Numbered from the stretch's first letter, positions 1 through 59,081 are shown. The stretch is DNA of 64,000 nucleotides from Acidimicrobiia bacterium UBA4744 (GCA_002403855.1 DHIO01000050.1:16598-80597); one strand, 5' to 3'. The notes: generated by a model from the sequence alone, not told the origin. Program-made: numbers and translations.

Positions 1-1
1 T

Positions 2-142
2 GCCGTGGTGATTGCCGCTATTGGAGAGGAGGAACTGACCCGGGTGCCGCTCGAAGCTTCGCCCGCCCGGAGCTTGCCCGAACTGGGCGAAGCTTTCGCC
101 TGGGCCAGCGAGTACTGGGATTGGCTGTTCGGCAATGAGTGA
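2..142 (+). CDS. 3' end of an upstream gene (partial), possibly tRNA(Ile)-lysidine synthetase
   Basis: Open frame entering from the window edge, ends ...EYWDWLFGNE* at 140-142. Coding-like GC3 bias. The TilS assignment rests only on tilS-hpt synteny common in actinobacteria. Confidence 0.35.
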   Translation, partial: AVVIAAIGEEELTRVPLEASPARSLPELGEAFAWASEYWDWLFGNE

Positions 143-172
143 CCGGGGAGCGGGCGGCGAGGTGGTGAGCTG

Positions 173-766
173 GTGACCGCCAAAGATGTGCCCTTCACCG
201 AAGTGATCCCGGTTGAAGCGTTGGCGTCGCGGGCGCGGGAGCTGGGCGACCAACTGGCGGAGGAATACCGGGGTCGCGAACCCGTCTTCGTCGGAATCCT
301 GCACGGCTCGCTGCCGTTTCTCAGCGATCTCATCCGGCAAGTCAGGATCCCTCTGGACGTTGACTTCCTGGCGCTCAGCCGGTTTGGCGAGGGTGGCAAG
401 GTTCGCATTGCCATGGACACGGAGACCTCTCTCGAAGGGAGACACGTCGTAGTCGTCGAGGACATCGTCGACACCGGTCTCACCCTTTCGTACCTTCGCC
501 GTTTGCTGGAAACCAGAGACGTTGCCAGCCTGGCGACGGTGACGTTGTTGGACAAAGCGCCGCGCCGGATTGTCGACGTGCCGCTTGAGTATCGGGGTTT
601 CGAGGTGGGAGACGAGTTCTTGCTCGGCTACGGGTTGGACTGGGAAGGCAAGTACCGAAACCTCCGTTCGATCTGGGCGGTCCTCGATTTGGCGGCTTTG
701 CAGGCCAGCCCGGGCGCACTGGCCGAGAAGGTCTTCGGGGCCCGCGGTGATAGTCTGATCGCATGA
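173..766 (+). CDS. hpt: hypoxanthine-guanine phosphoribosyltransferase
   Basis: 197 aa; PRPP-binding PRTase motif VVVVEDIVDTGLTL; length and layout typical of Hpt. Confidence 0.88.
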   Translation: MTAKDVPFTEVIPVEALASRARELGDQLAEEYRGREPVFVGILHGSLPFLSDLIRQVRIPLDVDFLALSRFGEGGKVRIAMDTETSLEGRHVVVVEDIVDTGLTLSYLRRLLETRDVASLATVTLLDKAPRRIVDVPLEYRGFEVGDEFLLGYGLDWEGKYRNLRSIWAVLDLAALQASPGALAEKVFGARGDSLIA

Positions 767-1284
767 GTGACCCTGAGCCCGCGGAGACGGATGGGATTCC
801 GATGGAGCTGATCGGCGTGCGGATCGAACTGCCGACCAACCAGCCGATCGTGCTCCTGCGAGAGGCGGGCGGGTCCCGGTATCTGCCCATCTGGATTGGG
901 GCCGTCGAGGCCACGGCGATCGCCTACGCACTGGAAGGGGTGACACCCCAGCGGCCTATGACCCACGATCTTCTCAAGACGGTGTCCGAGTCGTTGGGGG
1001 CGACCGTTGCCCGGGTGATCGTCACCGAATTGCGGGACAGCGTGTACTACGCGGATCTCATCCTGCTGCGCGACGACGAGGAGGTCACTGTGTCATCACG
1101 TCCCTCCGATGCCATCGCCTTGGCAGCCCGGATGGGAGCACCCCTGTTTGCGACGCCGCAGGTGTTGGATGATGCCGGAATCGAGATCCGTGACGAGGAC
1201 GAAGAAGCCGAGATCGAGAAGTTTCGGGAGTTCCTGGATCACATTTCTCCTGAAGACTTCGAGGCTGGAGAGTCTGCCAGCTGA
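763..1284 (+). CDS. bifunctional nuclease family protein (DUF151, Rv1829-like)
   Basis: 173 aa; motif LLREAGGSRYLPIWIG...ATAIAYAL typical of the BFN/DUF151 family. ATGA overlap with upstream hpt. Confidence 0.75.
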   Translation: MSDPEPAETDGIPMELIGVRIELPTNQPIVLLREAGGSRYLPIWIGAVEATAIAYALEGVTPQRPMTHDLLKTVSESLGATVARVIVTELRDSVYYADLILLRDDEEVTVSSRPSDAIALAARMGAPLFATPQVLDDAGIEIRDEDEEAEIEKFREFLDHISPEDFEAGESAS

Positions 1285-2285
1285 TGAAAGGCAGCACCAG
1301 GGTACGGGGCGCGGCCGCCATCCTGGCAGGCGTCATCGTGGTGGGAACCATCGGGTTCATGTTCATCGAGGAAGCGGGGCTGCTCGATGCCTTCTACATG
1401 ACCATGATCACGATCTCCACAGTCGGTTATTCGGAAGTCTTCCCGCTCTCCCAGGCCGGAGAAATGTTCACGGTCGGGCTGATCGTCGTCGGGGTCGGTA
1501 CGCTCTTCTACACTGCGGGTGCAGCCCTGGAGGCGGCATTCGAGAACCTGATTGGCCGGCGGGGACAGGCCAGAATGACGCGATCGATCGAACAATTGAA
1601 CGATCACTACATCATCTGCGGATTCGGCCGGGTGGGTAGCGCGACCTGGGAGTTGATCGAGGACCGGGGAGCGAGCGTGTTGGTCTTGGAGGGGAAGCCC
1701 GCTGCAGCCCAAGCTGCTCGGGACGCCGGGGCCCTCGTGCTGGAGGATGACGCAACACACAATGAAGCCTTGGTTGCGGCCGGTATCGATCGGGCCAGAG
1801 CGCTGATCGCTTGTGTGACGGCCGATTCGGACAACCTGGTCATTGTGCTCTCCGCCAAAGCGTTGCGACCTGATCTTCTCGTCGTCGCCCGGGCCGCCGA
1901 GAGTGAATCGGAGCGGAAGCTGTATCTGGCCGGAGCTGATCGGGTAGTCGCTCCCCAGCGGGTCGGCGCTCACCGGCTGGCTTCCATGGCGTTCCAACCG
2001 GAGCTAGCCGACTTCGTAGATCTCGTTCTGCAAGGCAACCACGTTGAGTTCCGCGTGCAGCAAATGCAGATTCACGAGGATTGCACCATGATCGGAATGT
2101 CGCTCCGGGAGGCCGGGATTCGCCAGCGATCCGGAGCCATGATCCTCGCCGTGCAGGATGAATCACGACGCCTCTACCTCAACCCGGACCCTGACTTGAT
2201 CATTACCGCCGGCCAGGTCATGGTGGGTATCGGCACCAACGATCAGATCGAGAAGCTCAACACTCTGATGACCGGGGCGGTCTAG
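1284..2285 (+). CDS. potassium channel protein with RCK/TrkA-N domain
   Basis: Two N-terminal TM segments, pore helix with selectivity-filter-like TISTVGYSE, then Rossmann GFGRVG (TrkA-N) and a C-terminal RCK domain. ATGA overlap with the upstream gene. Confidence 0.8.
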   Translation: MKGSTRVRGAAAILAGVIVVGTIGFMFIEEAGLLDAFYMTMITISTVGYSEVFPLSQAGEMFTVGLIVVGVGTLFYTAGAALEAAFENLIGRRGQARMTRSIEQLNDHYIICGFGRVGSATWELIEDRGASVLVLEGKPAAAQAARDAGALVLEDDATHNEALVAAGIDRARALIACVTADSDNLVIVLSAKALRPDLLVVARAAESESERKLYLAGADRVVAPQRVGAHRLASMAFQPELADFVDLVLQGNHVEFRVQQMQIHEDCTMIGMSLREAGIRQRSGAMILAVQDESRRLYLNPDPDLIITAGQVMVGIGTNDQIEKLNTLMTGAV

Positions 2286-2317
2286 ACCCGGCCCTGAAGA
2301 GTTATCCACAGATACTG

Positions 2318-2363
2318 TTGACAACTCCGTGTCGTTTTCGGTAAGTTGTGGCTCCGTAATTAC
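2318..2363 (+). promoter_or_regulatory. putative MerR promoter/operator: TTGACA -35-like hexamer, ACAACT-N17-AGTTGT inverted repeat, and 10-bp palindrome CGTAATTACG
   Basis: Seen directly: ttgACAACTccgtgtcgttttcggtaAGTTGTggctcCGTAATTACGag, 40-80 nt upstream of the GTG start. RBS aaagaggag precedes the start. Confidence 0.4.
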
Positions 2364-2400
2364 GAGCGTGTAAGCTAGGACGGCCAAAGAGGAGCGCGAC

Positions 2401-2883
2401 GTGACGGACATCGGTTACAGAGCCCCGCAGGTATGCAGCCTGGTCGGGATAACCTACCGCCAGCTCGACTACTGGGCACGGACGGGACTGCTCAAGCCTT
2501 CGATTCAGAGCGCCAAGGGCTCCGGATCGCAGCGCCGATACTCGTTCACGGATGTTGTGCAACTGAAGGTCATCAAGCGACTGCTCGACGCGGGCATGAG
2601 CCTGAACAAGATTCGTCAAGCAATGGACATCCTGGTTGGACAGTTGCAGAGCGACCAGCCGCTCGTCGATGTCACGCTCCTTTCCGACGGACAGACCATC
2701 TACGCCGCCCACAGCGCCGACGAAGTCGTCGACGTGTTCAGACGTGGGCAGGGAGTATTCGGGATTGCCGTAGGTCCCGTGCAAGCAGAGCTCGAAGGTC
2801 AGATCCACCAGTTGTTCCCTGAGCTGGAAGAGACCGGTTCGGCGGCCACGGTCGCGGCGACCGGGGAGGTTAGAACGACCTGA
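2401..2883 (+). CDS. MerR family transcriptional regulator (Rv1828/Rv1830-like)
   Basis: GTG start with strong RBS. N-terminal MerR HTH (YRAPQVCSLVGITYRQLDYWARTGLL...RRYSFTDVVQLKVIKRLLDAGMSL). Only 160 aa; see the finding on a possible frame-split with the next ORF. Confidence 0.8.
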   Translation: MTDIGYRAPQVCSLVGITYRQLDYWARTGLLKPSIQSAKGSGSQRRYSFTDVVQLKVIKRLLDAGMSLNKIRQAMDILVGQLQSDQPLVDVTLLSDGQTIYAAHSADEVVDVFRRGQGVFGIAVGPVQAELEGQIHQLFPELEETGSAATVAATGEVRTT

Positions 2884-3038
2884 CCATCCACGAGACATTT
2901 GGGGCAGGACCGGCCGACACCGCCAACTTCGCCCACAACAGCGAGCGCCAGTTCGCTCGGCTTCTGGACTTCTACGGGATCGAGTGGCAGTACGAGCCGC
3001 GGGCGTTCCCCATCGCCTGGTCCGACGAAGGGAAACCG

Positions 3039-3335
3039 GTGAGGTTCTTCACACCGGACTTCTACCTTCCCGAAGAGAACCTCTTCATCGAGATCACCAC
3101 GATGAACCAGAAGCTCGTCACCAAGAAGAACCGAAAAGTACGGAGACTGAAGGACTTGTACCCGGACGTCAACTGCAAGGTCTTCTACCAGCGTGACTAT
3201 CTGCACCTGCTGGTCAAATACGGACTCGAAGAACCGGATCACATGGACGAGGTGCCGGCCCCGACCAGAATGCCCGGGCCGCCACAGGTCACGAGGCTCA
3301 CGAACGATGCTCCGAGCGACCAGGTGGCGGGATAA
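3039..3335 (+). CDS. small conserved hypothetical protein (start uncertain; coding signal extends upstream to ~2874 without a canonical start)
   Basis: Track ORF starts at GTG 3039. The in-frame 55 codons upstream (LTIHETFGAGPADTANFAHNSERQFARLLDFYGIEWQYEPRAFPIAWSDEGKP) have strong GC3 coding bias but no ATG/GTG/TTG. Confidence 0.45.
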   Translation: MRFFTPDFYLPEENLFIEITTMNQKLVTKKNRKVRRLKDLYPDVNCKVFYQRDYLHLLVKYGLEEPDHMDEVPAPTRMPGPPQVTRLTNDAPSDQVAG

Positions 3336-3452
3336 TCCCCCCAAGCAGGCTGAACGGCCCTAGCCGCCGTGCCATTCTTTCCCACAGGTGTGCCTCTTCG
3401 GCGCGTCTAGGCTGCGAAGGGAAGAAACCTTCCGGCAGGAGGAGCGGTCGAC

Positions 3453-4505
3453 ATGCCCCAGTCTCCCCTCCACGAGGAACACGTCCGGCTGGGGGCCCGG
3501 TTTGTTGATTTCGCCGGTTGGGATATGCCTGTTCAGTACGAAGGCGTCCTGGCGGAACACGAAGCCGTGCGGTCTGCTGCGGGTGTCTTTGACGTCTCAC
3601 ATCTGGGCCGGTTTCGCCTGGAGGGGCCGGAAAGCACTCGATTACTGCAGACGCTGCTGTGCAACGATGTTGGAGCGGTCGAGCCGGGCCGCGCTCAGTA
3701 CACGATGGCCCTCAACCAATCAGGGGGAATCGAGGACGACATCATCGTGTGGAGATGGGAAGAGGATCGTTACTGGGTAGTACCCAACGGAGCAAACGAG
3801 GACAAGGTCCGGGCATTGTTCGTCTCTCGTGCCGACACCCGATCGACAATCGAGGATCTTCGAGAGTCAACGGTGCTCTTCGCCGTGCAGGGTCCCGCTG
3901 CACCGGCGGCCATCGAGACGGTGTTGGGACGGCGGCCCGTGCGGTTCTGCCTGTTTGAGACCACGTTTGCGCAGCATCCGGTGTGGGTGGCCGGTACCGG
4001 TTACACGGGCGAACCCGGCGGAGAGATTGCGGCGCCGATCGACGCGGCGGTTGAGCTGTTCGGGGCTTTCCTGGCAGCCGGCCTTACCCCGGCCGGTCTC
4101 GGTTCGCGGGACACGTTGCGACTGGAGATGGGATATCCGCTCTGGGGACAGGATCTGGATCCCCAAACGACTCCGCTCGAAGCCGGGCTGGCATGGGTAG
4201 TCGACTGGGATCACGAGTTCGTCGGCAAAGAAGCTTTGCAGCGTCAGAGAGACGGAGGTATCCCCAAGGAGCAAATCGGGTTCATCATGGAGGGTCCTCA
4301 GATCGCCAGGAACGGCTATCCGCTTCGGTCCGGCGAAACCACGGGGGTCGTGACCAGTGGTAACTACAGCCCCACCCTCAAGCGGGGAATCGGACTGGGT
4401 TACCTCCCCCCACCTCTCGCGGCCGACCTGCGAGTGGAAGTCCAGGTTCGGGATTCATGGTTGCCGGTTGTACGTCATGACCCGCCCTTCATCGAGAGGA
4501 CGTGA
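3453..4505 (+). CDS. gcvT: glycine cleavage system aminomethyltransferase T protein
   Basis: 350 aa; GcvT motifs (DVSHLGRFRLEGPES, folate-binding C-terminal domain). Confidence 0.88.
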   Translation: MPQSPLHEEHVRLGARFVDFAGWDMPVQYEGVLAEHEAVRSAAGVFDVSHLGRFRLEGPESTRLLQTLLCNDVGAVEPGRAQYTMALNQSGGIEDDIIVWRWEEDRYWVVPNGANEDKVRALFVSRADTRSTIEDLRESTVLFAVQGPAAPAAIETVLGRRPVRFCLFETTFAQHPVWVAGTGYTGEPGGEIAAPIDAAVELFGAFLAAGLTPAGLGSRDTLRLEMGYPLWGQDLDPQTTPLEAGLAWVVDWDHEFVGKEALQRQRDGGIPKEQIGFIMEGPQIARNGYPLRSGETTGVVTSGNYSPTLKRGIGLGYLPPPLAADLRVEVQVRDSWLPVVRHDPPFIERT

Positions 4506-5842
4506 TTGTGGATTTCACACCACACACAGATGACGATGTGGCAATCATGCTGGAAAGGCTGGGTTTGACCGACCCGGCGGACCTGTTTGCACATCTTCCT
4601 GCTGGTGTGCGACTAGACCACGACCCTGGCCTGCCCGAACCGGCTTCTGAGCTCGAGATCGTGCAGATGGTCGATTCCCTCGGCAAGCGGAACCGGTCGG
4701 GACTCGTTTGTTTCGCCGGCGGCGGTTACTACGACCACTACCTACCTCCGCTGGTTTCTGCTCTCACGATGCGACCGGAGTTCGTCACCGCTTATACCCC
4801 TTACCAGCCGGAGGTGTCGCAAGGTGTGTTGCAGGCGTTGTACGAGTTTCAGTCGATGGTGTGCGAGATGACCGGGATGGACGTAGCCAACGCCTCGCTC
4901 TACGACGGGGCAACCGCCGCGGTGGAAGCCGTGAACCTGGCCGTAGCGGCTACCGGTCGAGCGGCCGTCTGGGTGTCCAGGGGCGTTCATCCGCGCACCC
5001 GGGAGACCATTGCCACATTCGCCGCGGCTCGGGAGATCGAGATCGTTGAGCATGCCCTGGTCGACGGAAGGACGGTGTGGAACGAAGGAGTCGATGCGCC
5101 GCCGGCCGCGGTGGTTGTAGCCCAACCCAACTACCTCGGCGTCGTCGAAGACTACGACCGGGCAGCGAACGTAGCCCACACCGCTGAAGCCCTGGCCGTG
5201 GCCTCGGTCGATCCCATGACACTGGGGGTGCTCCGCAGTCCCGGGAAGGCAGGGTTTGACGTCACGGTTGCCGAAGGCCAACCGCTTGGTAATCCGCTGT
5301 CCTTCGGTGGTCCGGTAGTCGGCCTCTTTGGCACCACGGCCGCGCACGTGCGGCGCATACCGGGCCGATTGGTCGGTAGGACTGTCGACCGCGACAACCA
5401 GACCGCGTACGTGCTGACCCTCCGGGCCCGGGAACAAGACATCCGGCGGGCCAAGGCATCTTCGAACATCTGCACCAACCAGTCGCTGAATGCGCTGGCA
5501 TCGGCTATTCACCTCGCCTGGCTCGGTCCTCAGGGCCTGCGGGAGGTAGGGGAGCAATCTGCTCAAAAGGCCCACTATCTGGCGGACCGGCTGACGGAGC
5601 TGCCCGGCGTCAACCTCGCCACCGGCGAACCTTTTGTCCGAGAGTTCGCCGTGCAGCTGCCCACCGACCCTCTGGAGGTCATCGATGCCATGGCCGAGCA
5701 CGGCTACCTGGCCGGGATCTCCTTGAGCGAAGACTATCCGGAGATGCCCCGAACCATGGGAATCGCCGTCACCGAGAAGCGATCGAGAGCCGAGCTGGAT
5801 GGCTACACCGCAGCTCTGGGGGAGGTGTTGGCGCATGGCTGA
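4502..5842 (+). CDS. gcvPA: glycine dehydrogenase (decarboxylating) subunit 1
   Basis: 446 aa; GcvPA N-terminal half of the P-protein (YTPYQPEVSQGVLQALYEFQ). 4-nt overlap with gcvT. Confidence 0.88.
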   Translation: MIVDFTPHTDDDVAIMLERLGLTDPADLFAHLPAGVRLDHDPGLPEPASELEIVQMVDSLGKRNRSGLVCFAGGGYYDHYLPPLVSALTMRPEFVTAYTPYQPEVSQGVLQALYEFQSMVCEMTGMDVANASLYDGATAAVEAVNLAVAATGRAAVWVSRGVHPRTRETIATFAAAREIEIVEHALVDGRTVWNEGVDAPPAAVVVAQPNYLGVVEDYDRAANVAHTAEALAVASVDPMTLGVLRSPGKAGFDVTVAEGQPLGNPLSFGGPVVGLFGTTAAHVRRIPGRLVGRTVDRDNQTAYVLTLRAREQDIRRAKASSNICTNQSLNALASAIHLAWLGPQGLREVGEQSAQKAHYLADRLTELPGVNLATGEPFVREFAVQLPTDPLEVIDAMAEHGYLAGISLSEDYPEMPRTMGIAVTEKRSRAELDGYTAALGEVLAHG

Positions 5843-7328
5843 GCCGGCCGGCTGCGCATCATCGGCACCACTCGTCGGCGGAGACACCGAACCCACCCTT
5901 TCTGAGTTTTCCAGCGCGGGTCGACGGGCATCTTCCTTTCCGGTCCTCGACGTCCCCCACCGCCGGCTCGATCTCCCCGAGTCGGCGGGGCAAGCCCCCC
6001 GTCTCCCGGAAGTCTCCGAACACGACCTGGTCATGCATTTCACCCGTCTGGCTCATCGGAACTTCGCGGTCGATCTAGGGGCATATCCGCTCGGCTCGTG
6101 CACCATGAAATACAACCCGAAGGTGTGTGACTGGGCAGGAGCTCACCCCGAGTTCGCCGGGCTACACCCGGCAACACCGGTTCGACTGGTGCAGGGGGCG
6201 CTAGAGGTTCTTCTGGAGACCGAGCGGATTCTGTGCGACCTCACCGGCATGGTGCGCGCCACCTTCCAACCTCCGGCCGGTGCTTCCGGCGAGCTGACGG
6301 GTCTGATGATCATGCGGGCCCACCACCGCGTCCACGGCGATCCCCGGAGCAAGATCCTCATTCCGGACTCGGCACACGGCACGAATCCTGCTTCGGTGAC
6401 TCTCTCCGGCTACGAGGCGGTCGAAGTGCCTTCGAACGATCGCGGTATGGTCGACCTGGCAGCGCTGCACGAAGCCTTGGACGACCAGGTAGCCGGCCTC
6501 ATGCTCACCAACCCGAACACTCTGGGTCTGTTCGAAGAAGAGATCCTCGAGATTGCCGACGCCGTTCACGAGGTCGGCGGCCTGCTGTACTACGACGGAG
6601 CGAACCTCAACGCCATCATGGGTATCGCCCGTCCGGGAGATATGGGGTTCGACATCGTGCATTCGAACCTCCACAAGACATTCGCGACACCGCACGGCGG
6701 TGGGGGACCGGGTTCGGGGCCGGTGGCCGTGGGCGCCGACCTGGTGCGTTACCTGCCCGGCCCTCTCCCCGTTCGAGAAGAGGACGGGCACATCGGATGG
6801 GAAACGCCGGCGGCCAGTATTGGACGGGTCCACGGCCAGCACGGCAACTTCGTAGTGGTACTGCGTGCCTTGGTCTATATGCGGGCACTCGGCGGCGAAG
6901 GGCTTCGACGAGTAGCCGAACGGGCAGTGCTCAACGCGCGGTATCTGGAGCACCTGCTCGGCGATCGGTACGACCTGCCTTACCCGAGCACTTGCATGCA
7001 CGAGTTCGTGACTTCCGCCAAATCGATCAAGAAGGATACGGGGGTTCGGGCGATGGACATCGTCAAGGCACTCATGGATCGTGGCTACCACGCTCCCACG
7101 GTGTACTTCCCGCTCATCGTCGACGAAGCATTGATGGTCGAGCCAACCGAAACCCATTCCCGTGAGACCATCGAGGCACTGGCGGCTGCGCTCTCGGAGA
7201 TCGCCGAACTGGCGTATGAAGATGCTGACGCAGTGAAGACCGCTCCCCTGAGAACACCAGTCCACCGGCCCGACGACGCCCGGGCCGCGCGCAACCTGCA
7301 GGTGACGTGGGCTGCGGGAGAGGAGTGA
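5835..7328 (+). CDS. gcvPB: glycine dehydrogenase (decarboxylating) subunit 2
   Basis: PLP region HSNLHKTFATPHGGGGPG typical of GcvPB. ATG at 5835 overlaps the gcvPA stop by 8 nt; the upstream 5799 start would overlap more. Confidence 0.88.
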   Translation: MAEPAGCASSAPLVGGDTEPTLSEFSSAGRRASSFPVLDVPHRRLDLPESAGQAPRLPEVSEHDLVMHFTRLAHRNFAVDLGAYPLGSCTMKYNPKVCDWAGAHPEFAGLHPATPVRLVQGALEVLLETERILCDLTGMVRATFQPPAGASGELTGLMIMRAHHRVHGDPRSKILIPDSAHGTNPASVTLSGYEAVEVPSNDRGMVDLAALHEALDDQVAGLMLTNPNTLGLFEEEILEIADAVHEVGGLLYYDGANLNAIMGIARPGDMGFDIVHSNLHKTFATPHGGGGPGSGPVAVGADLVRYLPGPLPVREEDGHIGWETPAASIGRVHGQHGNFVVVLRALVYMRALGGEGLRRVAERAVLNARYLEHLLGDRYDLPYPSTCMHEFVTSAKSIKKDTGVRAMDIVKALMDRGYHAPTVYFPLIVDEALMVEPTETHSRETIEALAAALSEIAELAYEDADAVKTAPLRTPVHRPDDARAARNLQVTWAAGEE

Positions 7329-7330
7329 GC

Positions 7331-8152
7331 ATGGTGCAAACGACCGATGAAGTGGGGACCTCGGCGTCCGGGGAACGTCAGTTGCGAAGGCACTGGTTCG
7401 GCGAAGAACCTCCCTGGGCCACCGTCCTGATCGTGCACGGTGCAGCGGAGCACAGTGGACGGTTCGACCATGTCGCTACCCAGATGGTCGAGGCGGGCCT
7501 CGATGTGCACAGCTTCGACTGGGTGGGTCACGGCTGGTCGGGCGGGCACCGCTGGCATGTCGAGTCCTACGAGACCTACCACGACGACCTGGCCGAGCGC
7601 CTTGTCTCCACGCGCGCTCCGGATATCCCGCTGGTGCTGTACGGGCAATCCATGGGCGGGCTCATCTCGCTCGGATACTGCCTGTCAAGGGACGATCTGC
7701 CCGACCTGCTGGTGGTGACCTCGCCCTGGTTGGAGACGGAGGCTCCTGCCCTGCTCAAGACGGTGGTGCCGCTACTGGCGAAAGTAGTTCCGGGCCTGCG
7801 TCTGGACGGTGGCCTCAAGGGTGAACAACTGGCCCGAAACCCGGCGGTGGGCGAGGCGTACTTCGGCGACGAGCTGGTGGAGACCAAGATCACCGCAGCC
7901 TGGGGCGCGGCCAGCCTCCGGGAACAGGCCCGGGTTCGGGACGGATTGCGCTCCCTGCGGGTACCGGTCTTCGTGGTGCATGGTGGGGCGGACACCATCG
8001 CGCGTCCCCAGGTCAGCGCACCCCTGGGTGAGTTGCCGGACGCCGAACGCCGCCTCTATCCAACCCTGCGGCACGAAACCCACAACGAGCCGGAAGGCTC
8101 CGAGGTGGTGGCGGCCATCATCGAGTGGCTACGAAAGCGGGTCAGGGGATAG
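7331..8152 (+). CDS. alpha/beta hydrolase (lysophospholipase / monoacylglycerol lipase-like)
   Basis: HG oxyanion motif (LIVHGAAEH), nucleophile elbow GQSMGG, C-terminal His. ATG 3 nt after the gcvPB stop. Confidence 0.75.
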   Translation: MVQTTDEVGTSASGERQLRRHWFGEEPPWATVLIVHGAAEHSGRFDHVATQMVEAGLDVHSFDWVGHGWSGGHRWHVESYETYHDDLAERLVSTRAPDIPLVLYGQSMGGLISLGYCLSRDDLPDLLVVTSPWLETEAPALLKTVVPLLAKVVPGLRLDGGLKGEQLARNPAVGEAYFGDELVETKITAAWGAASLREQARVRDGLRSLRVPVFVVHGGADTIARPQVSAPLGELPDAERRLYPTLRHETHNEPEGSEVVAAIIEWLRKRVRG

Positions 8153-58670: not shown

Positions 58671-59030
58671 TCACGTTCCCTTCGGTTCGACCCAGAATGA
58701 ACGCAAGGGTACGGCGCTCGCCCGCAGCCACTCGAACGCTTCCCGGTAATCGGGTTCCCTCCCCGAACGTCTGGCCTGTTCGAGGTCGTCCTCGACATCT
58801 TCCAGAGCCGCCTGCAGACCGTACAAGTGGCCCTGCAACTCCTCGAGGTCGCGGCGAGAGATGATCAACTCGTCCGGTCCCAGCCCGTGCGAGGCCGCCA
58901 GCTTCCGGGCGATATGTGCTTGCTGACGGCATCCCTGCTTACAGTAGATCCGCCGGCGGCCCGCACCTCCCTGTTGAGGCAGTTCGCGGCCACACCATCC
59001 GCAGCGAGGCCGGAGCAGAGGTTTCGTCAT
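58671..59030 (-). CDS. hypothetical zinc-ribbon protein
   Basis: CGWCG...YCKQGC four-Cys motif near the N-terminus, 119 aa. The start is ATG 59030; the track's 5' extension would overlap the ybaK gene on the other strand and is rejected. Confidence 0.5.
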   Translation of the reverse strand: MTKPLLRPRCGWCGRELPQQGGAGRRRIYCKQGCRQQAHIARKLAASHGLGPDELIISRRDLEELQGHLYGLQAALEDVEDDLEQARRSGREPDYREAFEWLRASAVPLRSFWVEPKGT

Positions 59031-59081
59031 GTGACGAAGGGTACCGGATGGTTGGAATCCGCCGGGTAATCTGCTTGCTGC

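Follow-up and report, generated by a model that had tools for sequence, protein, structure and literature searches.

Some near-cognate start codons are conserved and serve regulation, examples being the AUU codon of infC, which is sensed by initiation factor 3 (IF3), and the AUU codon of pcnB. To our knowledge, conserved non-canonical starts are rare in bacteria and have proved regulatory where studied, as in infC. Translational coupling by termination-reinitiation requires that two genes overlap or are separated by a very short gap and is typical of ATGA and GTGA pairs, with overlaps of -4 nucleotides (nt) being the most frequent layout of coupled gene pairs (PMC10666635). In E. coli, initiator tRNA, initiation factor 2 (IF2) and IF3 are still required for re-initiation, which is IF3-sensitive (PMC2268962). 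Here we analyse a 64,000-nt stretch of DNA from Acidimicrobiia bacterium UBA4744 (GCA_002403855.1 DHIO01000050.1:16598-80597), hereafter the window, in which a gene for a MerR-family regulator is followed by a conserved gene, here named X, whose start is probably a CTG codon overlapping the MerR stop codon. The MerR/X pair combines two known things, namely 4-nt translational coupling and non-canonical initiation.

MerR/X resembles the coupled pairs that overlap by 4 nt, such as trpB-trpA (PMC10666635), in that both genes lie on the same strand, the overlap has the form NTGA and a Shine-Dalgarno (SD)-like element lies in the 3′ end of the first gene. Pairs of this kind occur in the window itself, where the same operon has ATGA, TGATG, GTGA and ATGNNTGA junctions. 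MerR/X differs from them in that its proposed start is CTG, apparently held by selection, and coupling is here something that we infer. With infC and pcnB, X shares a weak non-canonical start that purifying selection appears to have kept from drifting to AUG, whereas the codon of X is CUG and shares bases with the stop of the gene before it, the product is nuclease-like and its gene sits beside MerR, and no feedback loop is known. The prfB gene for release factor 2 (RF2), with its +1 frameshift at CUU UGA C, offers a further likeness in the SD-like element a few nt before a UGA where the frame changes. However, MerR/X would need a -1 shift, the last MerR codon takes ten forms with no conserved slippery codon, and X is a standalone protein.

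The genomic setting recalls the Rv1827-Rv1832 cluster of M. tuberculosis, which we take to run garA, Rv1828, Rv1829, Rv1830 (McdR/ResR), Rv1831 and gcvB. The likeness lies in the gene order of related Acidimicrobiia loci, with an Rv1829-like BFN gene before MerR, whereas the window has hpt and a TrkA-type channel inserted and gcv split into T, PA and PB; the resemblance to Rv1830 and Rv1831 is one of position. For the protein itself, the nearest described relative is phage T7 endonuclease I (PDB 3cae, 2pfj, 1m0d; PF05367), with which X shares profile similarity and a predicted fold, although X has an invariant Thr for the Lys of ExK and a chromosomal setting (hpt-BFN-MerR-X-gcvT) rather than a phage one. 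Literature searches returned no report of the MerR/X CTG start or of the X family, and the few papers on Rv1831 are silent on its start codon.

Gene X and its proposed start

The original prediction described a frame-split MerR regulator, with an open, coding-like frame lacking any start codon between the MerR stop and the next GTG. What it had seen in the sequence holds throughout. The MerR open reading frame (ORF) ends at 2883 after 160 amino acids (aa), and a downstream frame, -1 relative to that of MerR and co-overlapping it by 10 nt (AACGACCTGA), is closed by TAG 2871-2873, opens at 2874 and runs for 153 codons to TAA 3333-3335. Its earliest ATG, GTG or TTG is GTG 3039, at codon 56. GC fractions at the three codon positions are 0.62/0.45/0.85 in the 55 start-less codons and 0.59/0.37/0.82 in the remainder of the ORF. 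Several coding-like ORFs in the window that reach 120 codons or more have start-less prefixes of at least 25 codons, and of these the 2874 frame is the clearest; the one other examined (58701-59069) looks like an antisense shadow. The features of the junction and of X are as follows.

2401-2883, + strand: MerR-family regulator gene, start GTG 2401, stop TGA 2881-2883, 160 aa
2863-2869, + strand: Shine-Dalgarno-like GGGGAGG within the MerR 3′ end, 10 nt 5′ of the CTG
2871-2873, + strand: in-frame TAG that closes the downstream frame and confines any start to 2874-2927
2880-2883, + strand: CTGA, with the proposed CTG start (2880-2882) and the MerR TGA (2881-2883) in a 4-nt overlap
2880-3335, + strand: gene X as re-annotated, CTG 2880 to TAA 3333-3335, about 151 aa, PD-(D/E)XK/T7 endonuclease I-like
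2928-2945, + strand: FAHNSE motif, the first conserved block of X in alignment A1, 94 nt 5′ of the annotated GTG
3039-3041, + strand: GTG of the automatic annotation (98-aa model P0080), read here as the internal Val codon V56 and not as a start
3054-3101, + strand: active-site-like region PDFYLPEENLFIEITT, with D62 and E73 conserved and the Lys of (D/E)xK replaced by T75

For the conceptual 153-aa product of the downstream frame, about 8000 homologues were scored. All of the best 120 stand alone; most have 135-160 aa and span 81-95% of the query (lengths are 98-176 aa overall, except for P0005 with 235 aa), and a MerR domain is found in none of these 120. Clustered at 50%, the family comprises 2619 representatives with E<=1e-3. 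The core conserved in alignment A1 starts at residue 19 of the 2874 frame (FAHNSERQFARLLDFYGIEWEYEP...), and residues F19, A20, H21, S23, E24, Q26, F27, L30, L31, D32, F33, Y34, W38, Y40, E41 and F45, each at least 90% conserved, all precede GTG 3039. The AlphaFold model computed from A1 scores 80 on average in the predicted local distance difference test (pLDDT), with a core above 90, and places helix 22-34 and strand 45-49, both above 90, within the start-less part. Judged by homology, the start-less stretch is the N-terminus of a standalone conserved protein. Very probably, X is a gene of its own whose non-canonical start lies somewhere in 2874-2927; its independent initiation is indicated by lineages of a sister clade, described below, that carry their own ATG or GTG start after the MerR stop. 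The longest of the best homologues, P0005, is a partial tandem duplication of X in which the N-terminal 50 residues are repeated ahead of a full copy, possibly through an assembly artefact.

The interval for the start is bounded by TAG 2871 and by the conserved core at 2928, and the only one-base neighbours of ATG within it are CTG 2880 and ATC 2886. Eighty loci were taken from GTDB species-representative genomes, nearly all labelled Acidimicrobiia or Actinomycetota, with X at 60-82% aa identity; 75 loci were analysable, comprising 74 GTDB species genomes and the window. Starts were scored over up to 26 codons ahead of the core, bounded by the in-frame stop. CTG is present in this interval in 95% of the loci, ATC in 27%, GTG and TTG in 5% each and ATG in 0%, and in 70/75 loci an in-frame CTGA overlaps the upstream stop. 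The distance from CTG to the core ranges from -12 to -22 codons via indels, yet the stop overlap is retained. Where the overlap is absent, in L058 (TGA-CCG-CTG) and L054 (ATAG-AC-CTG), the CTG is kept, and in L058 and L062 it is the sole near-cognate codon 3′ of the in-frame stop. L055 has TTGA at the junction, and L063 and L070 carry CTCTAATC (TAATC), in which a TAA stop shares one base with ATC about 44 nt before the core.

The composition of the overlap argues for selection on the start codon itself. Across the 70 CTGA loci the last sense codon of MerR is ACC (29), AAC (17), CAC (7), CCC (7), ATC (4), GCC (2) or one of GTC, AGC, CTC and TCC, that is ten codon types for nine amino acids, every one of which ends in C. 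Because the last MerR amino acid varies while the third base stays C, the C appears to be fixed by selection. As a control in the same loci, nine 4-fold sites at invariant X residues have their commonest base at 42-76%, with G at 25-76%. In a classification that covered 70 loci, L054, L055, L058, L063 and L070 among them, the MerR/X junction gave no ATGA, no GTGA and one TTGA, against 69 ATGA, 61 GTGA and 7 TTGA overlaps where pairs of coding-like ORFs meet elsewhere in these loci and the window. In most of the remaining CTGA overlaps elsewhere a canonical start lies only a few codons away (e.g. CTGATG), and the few others resemble non-coding frames. Taken at the level of sequence comparison, these patterns show purifying selection keeping the C of the CTG.

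A strong SD-like element accompanies the codon. Over the 18 nt preceding the CTG, the computed anti-SD duplex energy in the window is -12.0 kcal/mol, a pairing no weaker than at any of six neighbouring canonical starts examined (-6.0 to -11.5 kcal/mol). The 68 loci with a value average -8.5 kcal/mol, as against -3.8 kcal/mol for 6611 other CTGs of the same loci (Mann-Whitney p=1.3e-32). The rare start at CTG 2880, which the original prediction had listed last of three explanations, is thus upheld by the conserved CTGA, the SD-like element and the missing canonical starts, and we consider CTG 2880 to be probably, and with good confidence, the specific start of X, coupled to MerR.

Several points speak against a CTG start coupled to MerR. 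The 75 loci share ancestry and their counts are not independent, which is mitigated by the 4-fold-site control with its same ancestry. The distance from the SD to the CTG differs between loci, from about 4 to 10 nt. In E. coli, CUG is a very poor initiator that forms weak initiation complexes, and the wild-type and M1 initiator tRNAs are both inefficient on it (PMC11497404). The window contains a second near-cognate codon, ATC 2886, and a singleton ORF, P0124, fuses MerR_1 to X. Lastly, the sister clade is heterogeneous, with CTG after the stop, ATC only, or canonical starts in 36/63 loci.

The sister-clade set consists of 63 distinct metagenome loci, seeded with NCBI-labelled Acidimicrobiales relatives that bear the motif LPHExVRFAHN. 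Besides the 36 loci with a plausibly placed ATG, GTG or TTG, the CTGA overlap alone is present in 7/63, a CTG shortly 3′ of the stop alone in 16/63, and neither of these but ATC-type codons alone in 4/63. The typical canonical start is an ATG 12-13 codons ahead of the core and 13-25 nt past the MerR stop ("MSEATLPHE"). Across the two sets of loci, putative near-cognate starts at or beside the MerR stop recur in the X family, and near-universal CTGA is, on this sampling, a trait of the window's clade. In L150, L158, L164 and L168 an ATC lies at or just past the stop with no in-frame CTG nearby, and ATC may also be used as a start in the X family.

Alternative readings

The alternative that survives best, although we consider it unlikely, is that X starts at ATC 2886, or at both CTG and ATC. 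This codon is in frame two codons past the CTG, and L063 and L070 (CTCTAATCGAC), together with several sister-clade loci such as the four just named, have ATC and no in-frame CTG near the stop. However, ATC is present in 27% of the GTDB-derived loci as compared with 95% for CTG and its position is not fixed, CTG is the only near-cognate codon available in L058 and L062, and the window SD sits 16 nt from ATC 2886.

If ribosomes underwent a programmed -1 frameshift towards the end of MerR, or slipped at its stop codon, the product would be a MerR-X fusion; this was the explanation placed first in the original prediction. The -1 relation of the two frames fits such a shift, the SD-like element 5′ of the stop is reminiscent of the prfB site, and P0124 (315 aa) does join MerR_1 (residues 6-77) to an X domain (residues 166-282). 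Yet the 10-nt co-overlap in the window (AACGACCTGA) lacks a slippery run, an X_XXY_YYZ heptamer in the MerR frame is found in 0/70 CTGA loci, P-site re-pairing at -1 is allowed in 5/70 only, and a prfB-type shift is +1, in the opposite direction. In L058 the MerR stop shares the X frame, so that a frameshift cannot join the two genes there, and sister-clade lineages carry independent ATG starts. The predicted fold of the junction RNA is not significant (2835-2925, z=-1.46; 22/200 shuffles fold as well). P0124 itself is a singleton (1 of 150 representatives at 50% identity, from one 40-kb ENA contig) with a linker that resembles out-of-frame sequence. Taken together, a frameshift at this junction is very improbable. 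The P0124 linker between MerR_1 and X is of low complexity, and the protein may reflect a true fusion confined to one lineage or else a frameshift introduced during assembly.

Still less credible is damage to MerR or X peculiar to this assembly, as a pseudogene or through a sequencing or assembly indel, which the original prediction had located near 2870-2885: the sequence is of metagenome type, in which single-base indels do occur, and annotation of a 99%-identical sequence, probably from the same genome, gives 98 aa only (P0080), but the same frame relation and CTGA recur in 70/75 loci, about 70 independent species assemblies that include the complete chromosomes OZ244213.1 and OZ244163.1, and both frames are intact and conserved up to the junction. 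Equally hard to credit is a 98-aa protein started at GTG 3039, with the 55 upstream codons untranslated or a relic, since, although GTG 3039 is the first canonical start and the choice of automatic annotation (P0080), those codons have a third-position GC of 0.85, encode two elements modelled at pLDDT above 90 (helix 22-34, strand 45-49) and carry the family's most conserved residues, including E24 aligned to the catalytic E20 of T7 endonuclease I, while column 56 in 24 full-length homologues holds Thr, Ser or Gln in most cases and Val in 2.

Gene callers treat X inconsistently. P0001 (L081) is called from a GTG a few codons downstream, P0057 (L084) from an upstream GTG that overlaps MerR by 34 nt, P0350 from a Val codon two residues ahead of the core, and P0080, 98 aa long and 99% identical to the window X, from GTG 3039, a model from which helix 22-34 and strand 45-49 are missing. 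Mis-calling of the X family is thus systematic: with CTG starts disallowed by gene finders, models are truncated to lengths of 98-129 aa, run on into MerR or take the form of pseudo-fusions, and the right gene model in the window would be 2880-3335.

Genomic context and fold

The window MerR carries the PF13411 MerR_1 helix-turn-helix at residues 6-76 (E=1.4e-17, 64 bits vs a cutoff of 21.6), and homologues in the gene calls of L081, L082, L084, L087, L088 and L092 are 156-167 aa long and stop at the equivalent point. By this comparison, and with X standalone, the window MerR is complete, neither split nor broken, contrary to the claim that headed the original prediction. Of the two findings that this prediction had named as counting against it, MerR homologues that end at about 160 aa are borne out, whereas the other, a separately conserved protein of roughly 100 aa whose start lies no earlier than 3033, is not: the downstream protein has about 151 aa, with the 55 codons as part of it. 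Its comparison with Rv1828-type regulators does not apply. The Pfam scan found Rv1828_C (PF28507) neither in the window MerR nor in the conceptual downstream frame, and the FtsR model of the NCBIfam scan gave E=0.068 against the window MerR, far short of its cutoff. The Rv1828-type gene is a different one farther upstream in related loci: in L087, L088 and L092, MerR+Rv1828_C is a separate gene 5′ of hpt, and the order there is FHA protein, MerR+Rv1828_C, hpt, BFN-domain gene, MerR_1, X, gcvT, gcvP. By position, the window MerR occupies the Rv1830 (McdR/ResR) place of the actinobacterial garA-to-gcv cluster, and X, likewise by position, the Rv1831 place.

In the window the gene string reads hpt (173-766), BFN-domain gene, TrkA-type K+ channel, MerR, X, gcvT, gcvPA, gcvPB. 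Four further junctions are close or overlapping, all with canonical starts, and the CTGA of MerR/X is the sole non-canonical one beside them.

763-766: hpt/BFN junction, ATGA, canonical
1282-1286: BFN/TrkA junction, TGATG, canonical
4502-4505: gcvT/gcvPA junction, GTGA, canonical
5835-5842: gcvPA/gcvPB junction, ATGGCTGA, -8 nt overlap, with GGGGAGG at 5820-5826, canonical

For gcvPB the ORF list puts the first start at ATG 5799, which is probably over-long by 12 codons. X and gcvT are separated by 117 nt (3336-3452) in the window; in L084 the two genes overlap by 4 nt, unlike the window gap. A consensus scan of 2200-3500 reported no promoter, and a terminator scan of the same interval returned a single weak terminator-like hairpin, at 3354-3370, 3′ of X; from these scans MerR and X are probably co-transcribed. 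A TTGACA followed 18 nt on by TAAGTT, unreported by the consensus scan, lies upstream of the MerR start (2320-2350) and could be the MerR/X promoter. Rfam over 1-8000 at gathering thresholds gave no family, with neither a glycine riboswitch before gcvT nor a known frameshift element.

X is predicted to have a restriction-endonuclease-like alpha/beta fold of the PD-(D/E)XK type and to be distant kin of T7 endonuclease I. The A1 profile matches T7 endonuclease I structures (3cae_A, E=7e-5; 2pfj_A, E=0.035; 1m0d, weaker), and homologue P0044 bears a precomputed PF05367 match. The window X protein itself gives nothing at E<=0.1 in Pfam and nothing in NCBIfam, and a Foldseek search of its model against the PDB gives weak matches only (E ~1e-2). 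Residues E24, D62 and E73 of X align with E20, D55 and E65 of T7 endonuclease I, of which E20 is catalytic. D62 and E73 are invariant in A1, and the position of the Lys is an invariant Thr (IEITT vs FVETKG of T7 endonuclease I), so that the catalytic motif D...(D/E)xK as such is absent from X, with Thr instead of Lys. Catalytic competence is uncertain because of this replacement.

Among representative proteins (P0259, P0232, P0133, P0158, P0170, P0192 and P0212), the X domain also lies within GAF-X-HPRT proteins of Chloroflexota/Dehalococcoidia and C-terminal to cytidylate-kinase-like PF13189 domains. The former account for Joint Genome Institute (JGI) names such as "hypoxanthine phosphoribosyltransferase". 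Judged from domain partners, these fusions hint at a role in nucleotide metabolism or with nucleic acid over that of a phage-type resolvase, and hpt belongs to the same gene string as X in the window.

Discussion

The arrangement at the MerR/X junction suggests a mechanism in which ribosomes that end on the MerR UGA would re-initiate in place on CUG 2880, by termination-reinitiation as at ATGA and GTGA overlaps, while additional ribosomes may arrive through the SD-like element. Given the inefficiency of CUG as a start, the expected outcome is sparse synthesis of X that depends on translation of MerR. The weak start may itself have been selected to limit or to condition X expression, which is suggested by the retention of CTG despite an easy change to GTG or ATG; a reason might be that X, as a nuclease-like protein, is potentially harmful, or that it partners MerR at sub-stoichiometric levels. 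Initiation with formylmethionyl-tRNA (fMet-tRNA) at the CUG, the coupling to MerR and the selective reason for a weak start are what we infer from the conserved layout.

A broader and more doubtful proposal is that the class-wide CUG at the MerR stop acts as a translational valve. X would then be made only by ribosomes that finish MerR, and at the low rate of CUG, so that its output would track MerR synthesis and possibly the fidelity of initiation as set by IF3 level, initiator-tRNA formylation or one-carbon status. The link to one-carbon status is suggested by the position of X directly before the glycine-cleavage genes. A complex between X and MerR would also be conceivable, given the coupling, the conserved adjacency and the rare fusion.

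For the family, an uncharacterised PD-(D/E)XK-like domain is now tied to the Rv1829/Rv1830-type cluster. For bacterial translation more generally, the clade of the window offers about 70 species-level replicates of a CTG retained at a stop/start overlap. MerR/X may therefore serve as a natural test case of whether termination-reinitiation relaxes the choice of start codon, and of why a weak start would be selected.

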